Positions 2,799 to 13,239 of a stretch of 64,000 bases of DNA are shown in pieces. The position numbers were made by a program, and so were the translations under genes. The DNA lies in the NCBI GenBank assembly GCA_035517635.1, contig DATIYL010000013.1:10224-74223 (forward strand), written 5' to 3'. Each line of letters opens with the position of its first letter. Within the stretch, counting starts at the first letter, position 1. Under the pieces are notes generated by a model, which saw only the letters and a list, made by a program, of their open reading frames with translations, had not been told where the DNA came from and did not search any database. This stretch comes from Stellaceae bacterium. Lineage in GTDB: Bacteria; Pseudomonadota; Alphaproteobacteria; ATCC43930; CGMCC-115725.

Positions 2799-3722
2799 AT
2801 GACGAACCACCAGCCCGAACCCCACTCCGACGCCTGGTCCGACTGGCTCCTCCATGTTCGACATGGGGGCGATGCGGAGTACCGCAGCACGATGCGCGCC
2901 AGGCTCAATCAGTACGCCGATCGCGTTCTCCATGGCGCGCGCCTCGCCGCCGGTATGACGCTTGCCGATATCGGCGCCGGCGAAGGCCTCATCGGCTTTC
3001 GCGCCATCGATCGAATCGGACCGTCGCTGCGGGTGATTTTCACCGACATTTCAGCACCCATGCTCCGACACGCCGAGGCGCTCGCCGCCGAACGCGGCAC
3101 CGGGCCTCAATGCGCTTTTCACCACTGCTCCGCCGAGCGTCTCGAAGCGATCGAGACCGACTCAGTCGATGTCGTCGCCACCCGCGCCGTTCTTGCCTAC
3201 GTCGCCGACAAGCCCGCTGCATTGCGCGAGTTCCGCCGGATCCTGAAGCCGGGCGGTCGCATCTCCCTCGCTGAGCCCATCTTTCGCGACGAGGCGCTCG
3301 TTATCGGCACCATGAAGGCCATCGTCGATGGCCGGTCGCCTGATGACGAAGAGCGCCTTTTGCCGCTGATGCATCGCTGGAGGGCCGCGCAACTGCCCGA
3401 TACCATGGAGAAGATCTCCGCCAATCCCATCACCAACTATACGGAGCGCGACCTCGTCCGCTTCGCCCAGGCTTGCGGGTTCACCGAGATTCACATGGAG
3501 TTTCACATCGACATTCTCCCTTTCGCCATCACCTCCTGGGAGACGTTTCTCGAGAGCTCGCCGCATCCTTGGGCCAGACCGCTCAAGGTCATCCTCGAAG
3601 AACAATTCACGGCAGAAGAGCGGCAGCTCCTCGAGCCGGCTCTCCGCCGCGTCATAATGGCCCCGAACTCCGTCACCATCGAGCGCATTGCCTACCTGAC
3701 AGCAACAAAGCCGAAGCGCTGA
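2799..3722 (+). CDS. Class I SAM-dependent methyltransferase
   Basis: Motif I LADIGAGEGLIG; post-I/II FTDIS, LKPGGRISLAEP. 307 aa. Confidence 0.7.
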   Translation: MTNHQPEPHSDAWSDWLLHVRHGGDAEYRSTMRARLNQYADRVLHGARLAAGMTLADIGAGEGLIGFRAIDRIGPSLRVIFTDISAPMLRHAEALAAERGTGPQCAFHHCSAERLEAIETDSVDVVATRAVLAYVADKPAALREFRRILKPGGRISLAEPIFRDEALVIGTMKAIVDGRSPDDEERLLPLMHRWRAAQLPDTMEKISANPITNYTERDLVRFAQACGFTEIHMEFHIDILPFAITSWETFLESSPHPWARPLKVILEEQFTAEERQLLEPALRRVIMAPNSVTIERIAYLTATKPKR

Positions 3723-3866
3723 CGACCAGATCGGCGGGGCAAAATCAGCGGTGATGCCGTCGGAATACCGCGCAGCGACTTTCGAACCTTGGCGCAGCGG
3801 ATGTTTGGAAAAGCGCCGAGCAATGGCGAGCCGAAAGCCGCTATTTCCCGTTTCGCTGAGATGCAC

Positions 3867-4604
3867 CTATTCCGTGAGCCGATCGCGCTCCGCCTGCGAC
3901 GCGCCGCAAGCGTCGCCGCCCTTGCGAACCGTCGCAATCAGCCCGGTGACCCCTCGCATCAGCCGAATGCCCGAAATCGAAGTTCTCCGCGGGCAAAAAC
4001 CGCCACTGCACAGCAAGTCCGCGAGTGCGACGCGGTCGAACAGCCGATGTGTTTCCGGGTTGGCGAATTTCCATCGGCGCATGGCGGCTGCTTCCGTCAC
4101 GTAGATCGACATGGCGCCGTCATCCCGCAACACCCGCCGCGCTTCAGCGAGAACCCTGCGGCCGTCGCGCCAGAAATAGGCCACATTCACCGCCAGGATC
4201 TTGTCGATCGAACCGTTTGCAAAGGGGAGGTCTTCGAAACGGCTCCGATAGAGGCGGACGCGGCCGGACCGCACCGCGTCGCGGTTGAGCGACCGGGTCT
4301 GCGCCAGCATGATTGGGGATTGATCGATCGCGTGGATTCTGCCGCGAGTTGCTCGGGCCACCATGACCCGGACCCCATCCCCCGGTCCGCACCCCAGCTC
4401 CAGCACCTCGTCCGCTGCCTGGATGTCGAGCGCGGCGATCGCCAGGGCGTTGGGTCGGACGTTCAGCAACCGCATCACCCGTCCTATCGCCCGGCCGGTT
4501 AGCCCGGATGGATGATGGAGTTGTCGGCCGATAGTCGCCCACACTGCCATCGGGCGGCTCACATGGGCGCCGGTCGCATCAGCGTAGCGATGCGAGCTTT
4601 TCAT
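3867..4604 (-). CDS. Class I SAM-dependent methyltransferase (type 11-like)
   Basis: VLELGCGPGDG motif I; IDKILAVNVAYFW; LRDDGAMSIYV. Start may be the internal Met at 4550. Last gene of the minus-strand operon. Confidence 0.7.
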   Translation of the reverse strand: MKSSHRYADATGAHVSRPMAVWATIGRQLHHPSGLTGRAIGRVMRLLNVRPNALAIAALDIQAADEVLELGCGPGDGVRVMVARATRGRIHAIDQSPIMLAQTRSLNRDAVRSGRVRLYRSRFEDLPFANGSIDKILAVNVAYFWRDGRRVLAEARRVLRDDGAMSIYVTEAAAMRRWKFANPETHRLFDRVALADLLCSGGFCPRRTSISGIRLMRGVTGLIATVRKGGDACGASQAERDRLTE

Positions 4605-11735: not shown

Positions 11736-12967
11736 GCCTTGGCGGGCCGGTCACGGAAGCGGACGTCCTCGTGATCGGCGGCGGTCCGGCCGGCCTTGCC
11801 GCGGCTCTGGCTGCTCGCGAGCAAGGTCTCAGCGTCGTCCTCGCGGATCGGGGACAGCCGCCGCTCGACAAGGCCTGTGGCGAAGGCTTGTTGCCGGATG
11901 GCGTCGCCGCCTTGCAGGGTGCGGGTGTCGAGCCGAACCCGCGTGAAGCGTTTCCGCTCCGCGGTATCCGCTTTATCGAAGCCGATCTCGCGGCCGAGGC
12001 ATCGTTCCCGGAGGGCCATGGCCTCGGCCTTCGGCGCACGCGCCTGCATCGGTTATTGGCGGAGCGGGCCCATGATGTCGGCGTGAAATTGCACTGGCGC
12101 ACGCAGATCGATGCCGACGATCCTGATCGGATGCGCATCGGCGGCCGCGCCGTTGATTGTCGATGGATCGTCGGTGCGGACGGCGTTCAGTCCCGTATTC
12201 GCCGGGCGATCGGGTTGGCGCCGGCTTGGACCGGCCCTCGCCGGATCGGCGTGCGGCAGCATTTTCGTCTCCGCCCGTGGTCCGATTTCGTCGAGGTGCA
12301 TTGGTGCCGCGGAACCCAAGCCTACGTCACGCCGGTCGGGACGGACGAGGTTTGTATCGCTGTTCTCGGCGGCGGGGCGGCCGCGCGCCTGGCGGATATC
12401 ACGACGATGTTTCCCGCGCTCGCGCGGCGGCTGAGCGGCGCCGAACGAATCGGCCCGATGCGCGGCGCCGTATCGGCCTCTCTCTCGCTGCGCGCCGTCT
12501 CGCGGGGAAAAGTCGCTTTGGTCGGCGATGCGTCGGGCATGGTCGACGCGATCACGGGTGAGGGAGTGTCGTTGGCGCTGCAACAGGCGACCGCTCTGGG
12601 GGTGGCCTTCGGTATCGGCGATCTCACACGCTACGAGGCAGCTCATCGCCGCATGCTCCGAAGGCCACTGCTGATGGCGCGCTTGTTGCTCCTGATGGGC
12701 GCACATGATCGCTTGCGCCACAGCGCCCTGCGCGCGTTGGCGGAGCGGCCGCGCCTGTTCGAGCATTTGCTGGCCGTACATCTGGACCGCCGCAATCCAG
12801 CGGCGCGCCCATTCGAGCTCTGCCGACTTGGGTTGCGCTTGCTCCAAGGAGGCCTGCCCCCGTTAACCGAGGCGCAAGGCGCGGCAGGCTTTGCTCCCGA
12901 GCGGCAAGAGGTGTGGATCGGCTCGAGGGAGCAATACCTCGGTCGATCTGCGGAACGTGACTCGTGA
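11729..12967 (+). CDS. FAD-dependent oxidoreductase (geranylgeranyl-reductase / aromatic hydroxylase-like)
   Basis: DVLVIGGGPAGLAAALAA dinucleotide fold; GDASGMVDAITGEG. ATG 11729 overlaps the PKS stop at 11733-11735. Confidence 0.75.
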   Translation: MVSLGGPVTEADVLVIGGGPAGLAAALAAREQGLSVVLADRGQPPLDKACGEGLLPDGVAALQGAGVEPNPREAFPLRGIRFIEADLAAEASFPEGHGLGLRRTRLHRLLAERAHDVGVKLHWRTQIDADDPDRMRIGGRAVDCRWIVGADGVQSRIRRAIGLAPAWTGPRRIGVRQHFRLRPWSDFVEVHWCRGTQAYVTPVGTDEVCIAVLGGGAAARLADITTMFPALARRLSGAERIGPMRGAVSASLSLRAVSRGKVALVGDASGMVDAITGEGVSLALQQATALGVAFGIGDLTRYEAAHRRMLRRPLLMARLLLLMGAHDRLRHSALRALAERPRLFEHLLAVHLDRRNPAARPFELCRLGLRLLQGGLPPLTEAQGAAGFAPERQEVWIGSREQYLGRSAERDS

Positions 12968-13239
12968 AAGTCGGTCCCGTCATCTCGATGGCAGCGGCGA
13001 TCGCACTTGCGGGATGCGTCGCCGTCTGGGGCGGCGCCTACGAGGTCGAATCGGCTGACGCGCAGGCGGTGATCATCAAATATGACGGGCACTTCACCTC
13101 TGCGGACAAAATCCGCGGAGTTGCCCAGGCGAACTGCTCCCGATACGGCGAAGACGCGATCCCGCAGCGCGAGTCCACGAGCGTATGGGGCCTGACCACC
13201 GCTGGGTTTGCGTGCGTCACGCAGCAATCCCGACGCTAG
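12964..13239 (+). CDS. Small lipoprotein, unknown function
   Basis: GTG 12964 overlaps TGA of the flavoprotein (GTGA). Lipobox AIALAGC. Confidence 0.45.
   Translation: MKVGPVISMAAAIALAGCVAVWGGAYEVESADAQAVIIKYDGHFTSADKIRGVAQANCSRYGEDAIPQRESTSVWGLTTAGFACVTQQSRR

Follow-up and report, generated by a model that had tools for sequence, protein, structure and literature searches.

A PF12261 cassette linked to a two-component system and an aminotransferase-type III polyketide synthase module adjoin in a Stellaceae bacterium

Bacterial operons that combine a type III polyketide synthase (T3PKS), a flavin adenine dinucleotide (FAD) oxidoreductase and a methyltransferase follow the logic of alkylresorcinol biosynthesis, as in srsABC of Streptomyces, hidABC of cyanobacteria and the methyltransferase (MT)-FAD-T3PKS operons of Planctomycetota, and lipoprotein or lipid-binding genes are sometimes attached to them (PMC10896814). 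A second point of comparison is the Pfam family PF12261, named 'thermostable hemolysin', for which purified recombinant delta-VFH of Vibrio fluvialis was described as a secreted protein that binds phosphatidylserine and phosphatidic acid and kills macrophages (PMC11033176). We analyzed a stretch of 64,000 nucleotides from a Stellaceae bacterium (contig DATIYL010000013.1, G+C content ~64%), hereafter called the window, in which genes of both kinds diverge from a short spacer (Table 1). The minus arm encodes the PF12261 protein (THL), an acyl/aryl-CoA ligase (AMP), a heme-oxygenase-like diiron oxidase (HDO), a short-chain dehydrogenase (SDR), an exported TPR protein (TPR) and a methyltransferase (MT2). 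The plus arm encodes an aminotransferase (AT3), a type III polyketide synthase (PKS), a flavoprotein oxidoreductase (FAD) and a lipoprotein (LIP). Farther along on the minus strand lie genes for a histidine kinase (HK2), a porin-like protein (POR) and a response regulator (RR2).

Two conserved modules make up the region, the minus-arm cassette and the plus-arm polyketide synthase module. A preliminary description had treated eleven genes here as one biosynthetic locus. All eleven were recovered with the coordinates, domains and tight spacing it had listed, using open reading frame (ORF) listings, Pfam and NCBIfam scans and independent Joint Genome Institute (JGI) gene calls on identical metagenome contigs, and each of its gene assignments was supported. 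Its remark that no carrier protein is present was also correct, as the phosphopantetheine-attachment motif occurred in no real ORF between 2400 and 13700. The enzyme families are already known, and the polyketide synthase core (type III synthase, flavoprotein and methyltransferase) follows the known srs/hid-like logic, as had been proposed; the locus is therefore not a categorically new system. No characterised counterpart of either module turned up in the searchable literature, and no paper found in our searches treats either one as a pathway. In a composition analysis of the window, neither arm looked compositionally foreign. The proposal of a single unit was not borne out, and the evidence for this came from the distribution of the minus-arm genes in other genomes.

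To survey the cassette, THL homologs were aligned, 80 genome loci were taken with 10-kb flanks, and the window proteins were mapped onto them by tblastn; surveyed loci are numbered with the prefix L. The order THL-AMP-HDO-SDR-TPR-MT2 was kept in most of the 80, with HDO present in 74, AMP in 72, SDR in 71, MT2 in 67 and TPR in 66, and in one subgroup of loci TPR and MT2 were inverted. Carriers included Nitrospirillum, Azospirillum, Tistlia, Bradyrhizobium, Xanthobacter, Methyloceanibacter, Roseiarcus and Pleomorphomonas, as well as many metagenome-assembled genomes. AT3-PKS-FAD lay within 10 kb of the cassette in only 7 of the 80 genome loci and was absent from the other 73. The minus arm is thus an autonomous six-gene cassette, which is normally found directly downstream of or beside a two-component system.

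The association with a two-component system is evident both in the window, where HK2 and POR are encoded on the same strand as THL, and in loci that have no PKS arm. In at least 12 of the latter, homologs of HK2 and POR stood directly 5' of THL in the order POR-HK2-THL, with HK2 and THL on one strand and 150-290 bp from the end of HK2 to THL (L003-L006, L009, L014, L016, L018, L019, L053, L067 and L068). Fifteen loci have a POR homolog (54-71% identity) in this position, and RR2 homologs (63-85% identity) preceded POR-HK2-THL in related loci. Together, these arrangements point to an ancestral layout of this lineage that ran RR2-POR-HK2-THL-AMP-HDO-SDR-TPR-MT2, and the cassette's own sensor system in the window is RR2-POR-HK2 (15057-19357). 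In the window, L001, L002 and L168, HK2 and THL are separated by AT3-PKS-FAD, inserted in inverted orientation. Homologs of LIP were found in L001, L002 and Tistlia (L004); Tistlia has no PKS arm, and its homolog stands between HK2 and THL. Other loci keep the association in different forms: Hyphomicrobiales-type loci have the order regulator (RR)-kinase (HK)-THL, and L007 (10664-12735), L027 and L028 have the regulator and kinase genes within the cassette itself, where they separate THL from AMP. Overall, a kinase or regulator was found within 5 kb of THL in 59 of 72 sufficiently flanked loci and within 1.5 kb in 45 of them. The preliminary description had left out the two-component system tied to the cassette. 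POR scores just above the Pfam cut-off for a phosphate-selective porin O/P and a cytochrome b561 gene lies near RR2, and a link to the lipid remodelling that accompanies phosphate limitation is conceivable.

On the plus arm, AT3, PKS and FAD form a highly conserved module of their own, which is accessory and in the window is placed between the cassette and its kinase. The best solved relative of PKS is Pks11 of Mycobacterium tuberculosis (4jao, E 9e-100), an alkylpyrone synthase that it matches over its full length and whose catalytic triad it shares; the motifs GCAGG, HTGGP and GNLSSAS contain the Cys, His and Asn of this triad, which are invariant in the homolog alignment. The genomic context of Pks11 differs from that of PKS. 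As in srsABC, hidABC and the Planctomycetota operons, the synthase is paired with an FAD oxidoreductase; a class I methyltransferase also accompanies it, in the window outside the plus arm, and judged from its sequence it would be of the long-chain acyl type. The differences from the srs/hid operons are that the order here is AT3-PKS-FAD, with a PigE-like aminotransferase as the integral first gene, and that the methyltransferase is found on the other arm or 5' of AT3. FAD and MT2 are candidate counterparts of SrsC/HidB and SrsB/HidA, respectively. FAD scored 104 bits with the GG-red-SF model, which is below the cut-off, and it is closest to aromatic flavin monooxygenases; its best solved relatives were MHPCO, CmlS and PDB 2x3n, which we take to be PqsL.

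A metagenome scan seeded with PKS returned 80 loci, many of them on short contigs, and AT3 was directly 5' of PKS in 45 and FAD 3' of PKS in 49. PKS relatives below ~61% identity lacked AT3. Sample identifiers suggest that the module is found in peat and soil. AT3 has more than 6,300 orthologous proteins at E <= 1e-100, identity does not fall below 68% within the best 120 clusters, and it shares 64-79% identity between lineages, compared with ~42-55% for the cassette genes of the same loci. This higher conservation suggests either strong constraint on AT3 or recent transfer of the PKS module.

The best solved relative of AT3 is PigE (4ppm, E 3.5e-81), followed by putrescine and ornithine aminotransferases. 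The match covers the aminotransferase domain of PigE, whose N-terminal half is lacking in AT3, and against the PigE equivalog NF053554 the protein reached 405.6 bits over profile positions 371-732 of 837, short of the cut-off of 850, so that it falls outside this family. An aminotransferase followed by a flavoenzyme is the logic of PigE and PigB, which form 2-methyl-3-amylpyrrole (MAP) in prodigiosin biosynthesis, and Mannich-type condensations on cyclic imines are known from the plant enzymes PYKS and PIKS. The plus arm could by analogy make an N-heterocyclic lipid. AT3 would convert a diamine to a cyclic imine that reacts with a beta-keto acid from PKS, or it would aminate a polyketide ketone that then cyclises, and the flavoprotein would aromatise or reduce the ring. 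The ranking of solved AT3 relatives, its unusual conservation and its invariable position as first gene of the AT3-PKS-FAD unit are in keeping with this route. We nonetheless consider it quite improbable, as the flavoprotein belongs to a different family from the amine oxidase PigB, PKS is closest to long-chain alkylpyrone synthases, and PKS-FAD pairs without AT3 occur among more distant relatives, as would be expected if AT3 had been added later to a core of the hid/srs kind.

The PKS module also occurs apart from the cassette. In Beijerinckia indica ATCC 9039 (CP001016, L166 4605-13562), the gene order is MlaA-DUF2147-TPR-MT-DUF4399-DUF2141-TPR-AT3-PKS-FAD, and THL, AMP, HDO and SDR are not nearby; the genes 5' of the module form a run of small exported or envelope proteins. 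Other stand-alone modules had a TPR homolog 3' and were flanked by genes for DUF3108, DoxX, YceI, MlaA or a MacB-type ABC transporter. In L035 (17279-20466), the flavoprotein and a MacB-like permease domain share a single longest ORF, which is followed by an ABC ATPase gene; the joined ORF may be either a fusion or an ORF-calling artefact. Eight metagenome AT3-PKS loci had at least 7 kb of upstream and at least 4 kb of downstream sequence, and the cassette was present in three of these and absent from five. It is clear that in many genomes either module functions without the other.

When the two modules do adjoin, they do so in four gene orders. They were divergent with THL facing AT3 in the window, L001, L002, L081 and L168, and co-directional as ...TPR-MT2-AT3-PKS-FAD in L007, L027, L028, L035, L050, L122, L123, L127, L129, L133 and L134. 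The order AT3-PKS-FAD-RR-HK-THL-... was seen in L106 and L108, and in L087 the cassette with a kinase and regulator was divergent from AT3-PKS-FAD. Linked loci fell into at least five clades of a neighbor-joining tree of the cassette ligase, each with unlinked sister loci. By our own estimate, random placement in a 5-Mb genome would bring the modules to within 10 kb of each other in ~0.4% of genomes, and 7 of 80 would then correspond to a binomial P of ~5e-8. Homologs of TPR and of the methyltransferase accompany either module. The recurrent adjacency across gene orders and clades, the estimate and the common TPR and methyltransferase homologs make a chance juxtaposition very unlikely, and the two modules are probably functionally coupled. 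When match lists were compared, co-residence of the cassette and the PKS module was seen only for loci in which they were already adjacent. The preliminary description would have been undermined had the two arms never co-occurred elsewhere, and on this point it has held up.

The same evidence bears on the possibility that the two arms make unrelated products and are brought together by common envelope or stress regulation or by chance. The 73 cassette loci without a PKS arm, the five well-flanked AT3-PKS loci without a cassette and B. indica, which has the PKS module only, would all be expected if this were so. It does not readily account for adjacency that recurs in several orders and clades, for its frequency relative to our estimate, or for TPR and methyltransferase homologs common to both modules, and we regard it as unlikely.

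The protein at the head of the cassette, THL, appears to be an acyltransferase. Its AlphaFold (AF2) model had a mean predicted local distance difference test (pLDDT) score of 89, and in Foldseek searches of the PDB its best fold matches were LasI, TofI and MesI, the last of which is CoA-dependent, followed by FeeM and assorted GNAT acetyltransferases. The matches to LuxI-type synthases (LasI, TofI, MesI and EsaI) had E values of 1.6e-6 to 7e-4 and template-modelling (TM) scores of 0.43-0.61, which would place the model in this fold. FeeM matched at an E value of 1.4e-4 (2g0b); a carrier-protein gene is absent here, and a CoA ligase gene is adjacent instead. The acyltransferase nature that had been assigned to THL is thus supported by the model. 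The acyl donor would come via the CoA ligase, as in CoA-dependent synthases. In a Pfam scan (E <= 0.01), THL matched only PF12261 and not the autoinducer-synthase family, and a THL profile searched against the sequences of solved structures gave no match, so that only the fold comparison was informative. Unlike LuxI-type synthases and FeeM, THL has neither a LuxR nor an acyl carrier protein partner, and its conserved motifs, LCAAGLR and DGFFSExYL, differ from theirs. No LuxR-type gene was seen in the neighborhoods of the window and the annotated loci, where the regulatory neighbors were OmpR-type regulators and histidine kinases. On the strength of the model, THL would best be described as acyl-amide-synthase-like but not a member of the LuxI family. 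The THL family comprises ~2,000 clusters at 50% identity. THL itself is 100% identical to a protein annotated in a Stellaceae metagenome-assembled genome, which assigns the window to an alphaproteobacterium of this family.

These features are relevant to a role of the cassette in cell-to-cell or environmental signaling, in which THL and the ligase would make a diffusible N-acyl signal, the oxidase and SDR would set its oxidation state, the methyltransferase would cap it, and the neighboring kinase (with a dCache domain here) would detect it. Either variants of this signal or a second one would come from the PKS arm. In favor of such a role, THL is most similar in predicted fold to acyl-homoserine-lactone synthases, among them CoA-dependent MesI; its gene always has a CoA ligase gene beside it and in 45 of 72 loci directly adjoins a kinase gene. 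A synthase gene beside a sensor-kinase gene is the layout of CqsA/CqsS, PhcB/PhcS and RpfF/RpfC. The absence of a match to the Pfam autoinducer-synthase family and of a LuxR-type receptor nearby speaks against such a role, and the exported TPR, MlaA, YceI and lipoprotein neighbors suit lipid trafficking better. Operons of a modification enzyme and a two-component system, such as pmrCAB, are also typical of envelope remodelling. We consider signaling rather unlikely as the function of the cassette.

The Pfam name itself suggests another role for THL, that of a secreted membrane-active hemolysin or cytotoxin, with the neighboring enzymes either unrelated or serving its maturation. The properties of V. 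fluvialis delta-VFH are the main argument for it. THL, however, has no signal peptide on inspection of its translation, its model has a confidently predicted GNAT/LuxI-like enzyme fold, and most carriers of the cassette are free-living bacteria of soil and peat. THL/AMP junctions of +4 or -4 nt across loci suggest translational coupling to the CoA ligase, and this coupling extends over Alpha-, Beta- and Gammaproteobacteria and Streptomyces. A toxin role for THL in the window is very improbable. One speculation is that a surfactant-like N-acyl product could also explain hemolysis.

The remaining cassette enzymes belong to families that could modify an acyl product. AMP, which was always 3' of THL in the mapped loci (genome, metagenome, Vibrio, Streptomyces and Variovorax), is a divergent ANL-family ligase with MenE and feruloyl- and fatty-acyl-CoA synthetases as its nearest solved relatives. 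The diiron site of HDO, which the preliminary description had named as such, is intact: the putative metal ligands E81, H84, E138, H170, D174 and H177 were invariant in 26 homologs, and this set of three histidines and three carboxylates is presumably the ligand pattern of CADD and UndA. The HDO model (pLDDT 91) gave TM scores of 0.84 to 3dde, 0.82-0.87 to CADD, a p-aminobenzoate (pABA) synthase, and 0.78 to UndA, and the orphan structure 3dde was also its sole solved relative at the sequence level (E 4e-15). HDO is predicted to have the same helical heme-oxygenase-like fold as these proteins with all six metal ligands present, and has an additional conserved AYHHVRHT motif. Public annotations of HDO homologs include 'PqqC' and 'TenA family regulator'. 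SDR is FabG/RhlG-like by profile scans and solved relatives. For TPR, the only natural solved match of similar size was the sterol-binding protein BstC, and the match was weak; TPR homologs follow either module. MT2, which is conserved in 67 of the 80 cassette loci, is directly 5' of AT3 in the co-directional gene order, and a TPR-MT pair is likewise present in B. indica.

Taken together, these assignments lead us to suggest, tentatively and at slightly less than even confidence, that the two-module locus makes a tailored, phosphorus-free, lipid-like envelope molecule whose synthesis is under the adjacent two-component system. The CoA ligase would activate a fatty or aryl carboxylic acid, and the PF12261 protein, with its LuxI/FeeM-like fold, would pass the acyl group to an amine to give an N-acyl amide. 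HDO would oxidise this molecule with O2, most likely by hydroxylation or desaturation, a step that would fall to a TauD-type enzyme elsewhere; the FabG-like SDR would interconvert hydroxy and keto groups, MT2 would cap the molecule, and the exported TPR protein may handle the hydrophobic product in the periplasm. On the plus arm, the Pks11-like synthase would extend a long-chain acyl-CoA to a phenolic lipid of the alkyl-resorcinol or alkyl-pyrone type, which the flavoprotein would oxidise or reduce and to which PigE-like AT3 would add an amino group. The amine made by AT3 is a plausible acceptor for the PF12261 enzyme, which would join the arms chemically. THL would find a natural acceptor in this amine, which would account for the repeated recruitment of the modules to each other.

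As to the product, our best guess is an N-acyl or phenolic compound that is tailored and serves as an envelope lipid or a signal; the N-acylated, oxidised amino-alkylphenol put forward in the preliminary description is likewise a guess. The exported TPR protein, the lipoprotein and the recurrence of MlaA, YceI and MacB as neighbors speak for the envelope-lipid alternative, and the envelope-type genes that adjoin the modules also include those for DoxX and DUF3108. A signal is favored by the LuxI/FeeM-like fold predicted for THL and by the layout of a synthase gene next to a kinase gene.

Several points weigh against the envelope-lipid pathway set out above. The modules are often apart, as most cassettes have no PKS arm within 10 kb and the PKS module is also found alone, and hand-over of an amine between the arms therefore cannot be the general chemistry of the cassette. 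The likeness of the THL model to LuxI and FeeM is moderate (TM 0.5-0.6, 13-15% identity). The flavoprotein could be a reductase and not a hydroxylase, the methyltransferase sits on the other arm in the window, and the neighboring envelope genes vary between loci. Experiments on PF12261 proteins are limited to work that portrays a secreted cytotoxin with affinity for lipids and not an enzyme (PMC11033176).

The cassette is not confined to Alphaproteobacteria. Annotated replicons of Vibrio sp. HDW18 and Pseudoalteromonas sp. HL-AS1 encode, in order, a 'thermostable hemolysin', an AMP-binding protein, an iron-containing redox enzyme, an SDR, a TPR or hypothetical protein, a response regulator and a kinase, and Variovorax boronicumulans has the same genes but with the kinase and regulator convergent. 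These loci resemble the window in having PF12261, AMP-binding, HDO, SDR and TPR/hypothetical genes followed by a regulator and kinase; they differ in having no MT2 and no PKS arm, and THL identity is only ~30%. In Vibrio parahaemolyticus, VP1729 is the thermostable hemolysin (delta-VPH), VP1731 an iron-containing redox enzyme and VP1735 a two-component gene (PMC10469919). The three match the cassette, which indicates that the founding 'hemolysin' gene sits in this same cassette (VP1729-VP1735), a locus that is known only as a 'hemolysin' gene and not as a pathway.

More distant THL homologs (33-37% identity) were found in two metagenome loci with the order DUF6134-RR-HK-THL-AMP-SDR-TauD, in which DUF6134 is 5' of the regulator, and a Streptomyces plasmid carries MT-THL-AMP-TauD-MT, with two methyltransferases and no two-component system. 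In these cassettes HDO is replaced by an Fe/2-oxoglutarate dioxygenase of the TauD type while THL, AMP and the rest stay, which argues that the pathway would need an O2-dependent oxidation step.

This wider distribution allows a bolder proposal, in which the PF12261 family, including delta-VPH, would consist not of toxins but of synthases of new, pan-proteobacterial N-acyl signals. These would be made with the aid of the ligase, HDO or TauD, and SDR and read by the adjacent kinase, and AT3 and the PKS module would have been recruited repeatedly in soil Alphaproteobacteria to supply a polyketide-derived amine or acyl group. We think this proposal doubtful, on a par with the signaling role considered above for the cassette.

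If the envelope-lipid pathway is correct, a family listed for decades as a Vibrio virulence 'hemolysin' would be the acyltransferase of a conserved, sensor-linked small-molecule pathway in thousands of Proteobacteria, and its reading as a virulence gene in genome surveys would change. An HDO subfamily with a full predicted metal site would gain a defined genetic context and cultured hosts. Alphaproteobacteria of acid soil and peat (Beijerinckia, Bradyrhizobium-like bacteria, Methylocystaceae, Roseiarcus and Stellaceae) would carry a highly conserved aminotransferase-T3PKS-flavoprotein module that extends the alkylresorcinol logic with nitrogen and may yield a new class of envelope lipids or signals.

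Table 1. Features of the window and of distant cassettes with a TauD-type enzyme. Coordinates are window positions unless a locus is named; SAM, S-adenosylmethionine.
Feature	Coordinates	Strand	Basis and remarks
RR0 and HK0, second OmpR-type two-component system (regulator and HAMP kinase)	97..2137	+	Pfam; convergent on cassette end
MT1, class I SAM methyltransferase	2799..3722	+	Methyltransferase Pfam matches; convergent, not a conserved member
MT2, class I SAM methyltransferase	3867..4604	-	Methyltransf_25/11; JGI start 4475, 202 aa
TPR, exported TPR protein	4579..5247	-	TPR Pfam matches; N-terminal signal peptide by inspection of translation
SDR, classical short-chain dehydrogenase, FabG/RhlG-like	5250..6155	-	adh_short 155 bits; probable start 6116; JGI 288 aa
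HDO, heme-oxygenase-like diiron oxidase	6094..6777	-	Haem_oxygenas_2, PF14518, 92.7 bits (cut-off 28.9)
AMP, acyl/aryl-CoA ligase (ANL family)	6774..8267	-	AMP-binding 181 bits
THL, PF12261 'thermostable hemolysin' protein	8272..8940	-	PF12261, 154.3 bits (cut-off 27)
Divergent spacer THL/AT3, 267 bp	8941..9207		ORF coordinates; without sigma-70-type consensus promoter
AT3, class-III omega-aminotransferase, PigE-like	9208..10575	+	Aminotran_3 292 bits
PKS, type III polyketide synthase, Pks11-like	10608..11735	+	Chal_sti_synt N and C domains
FAD, flavoprotein oxidoreductase (group A monooxygenase or geranylgeranyl-reductase type)	11729..12967	+	FAD_binding_3
LIP, small lipoprotein, 91 aa	12964..13239	+	LAGC lipobox read from translation
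MEM, polytopic membrane ORF, 548 aa	13375..15021	+	No Pfam match; probably outside conserved system
HK2, sensor histidine kinase (dCache, HAMP, HisKA, HATPase)	15057..16892	-	Pfam
POR, porin-like outer-membrane protein between RR2 and HK2	17355..18371	-	Porin_O_P 22.5 bits (cut-off 20.9)
RR2, OmpR-type response regulator	18455..19357	-	Response_reg and Trans_reg_C
Cytochrome b561 gene adjoining RR2	19462..19998	-	Domain scan
TauD-type distant cassettes	L161 5250-11737; L162 501-6984; L164 4907-9758

The start sites refined here agreed with the independent JGI gene calls. Genes of the minus arm were separated by +4 nt (THL/AMP), -4 nt with the overlap GTGA (AMP/HDO), approximately -23 nt (HDO/SDR) and +2 nt (SDR/TPR), and the TPR/MT2 junction was +103 nt with the JGI start and -26 nt with the longest ORF. 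On the plus arm, AT3 and PKS were separated by +32 nt, FAD overlapped the PKS stop codon (-7 nt or -4 nt), and the FAD/LIP junction was -4 nt. Scans of 2400-15200 for sigma-70 promoters and intrinsic terminators found nothing above shuffled expectation, which in a GC-rich genome is uninformative on operon structure. JGI calls also place a 67-aa ORF on the THL strand within the divergent spacer (L173 2290-2493), which is probably spurious.

Two other genes were considered as members and rejected. The preliminary description had counted MT1 as part of the locus, and it was a candidate for a conserved srsB-like methyltransferase; its sole homolog among 160 loci was in L001, at the opposite end of the locus, and it is thus not syntenic. 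MEM was considered as a member of the plus arm, but none of the 80 genome loci has it, L001 and L002 included. The ORF that occupies the corresponding place in L168 is no homolog, and MEM is peculiar to the window. Beyond the cytochrome b561 gene, 20310-24106 contains several long overlapping ORFs on both strands without a Pfam match. At the other end of the window, homologs of RR0 and HK0 were syntenic in L006, L024 and L066 at 49-71% identity.

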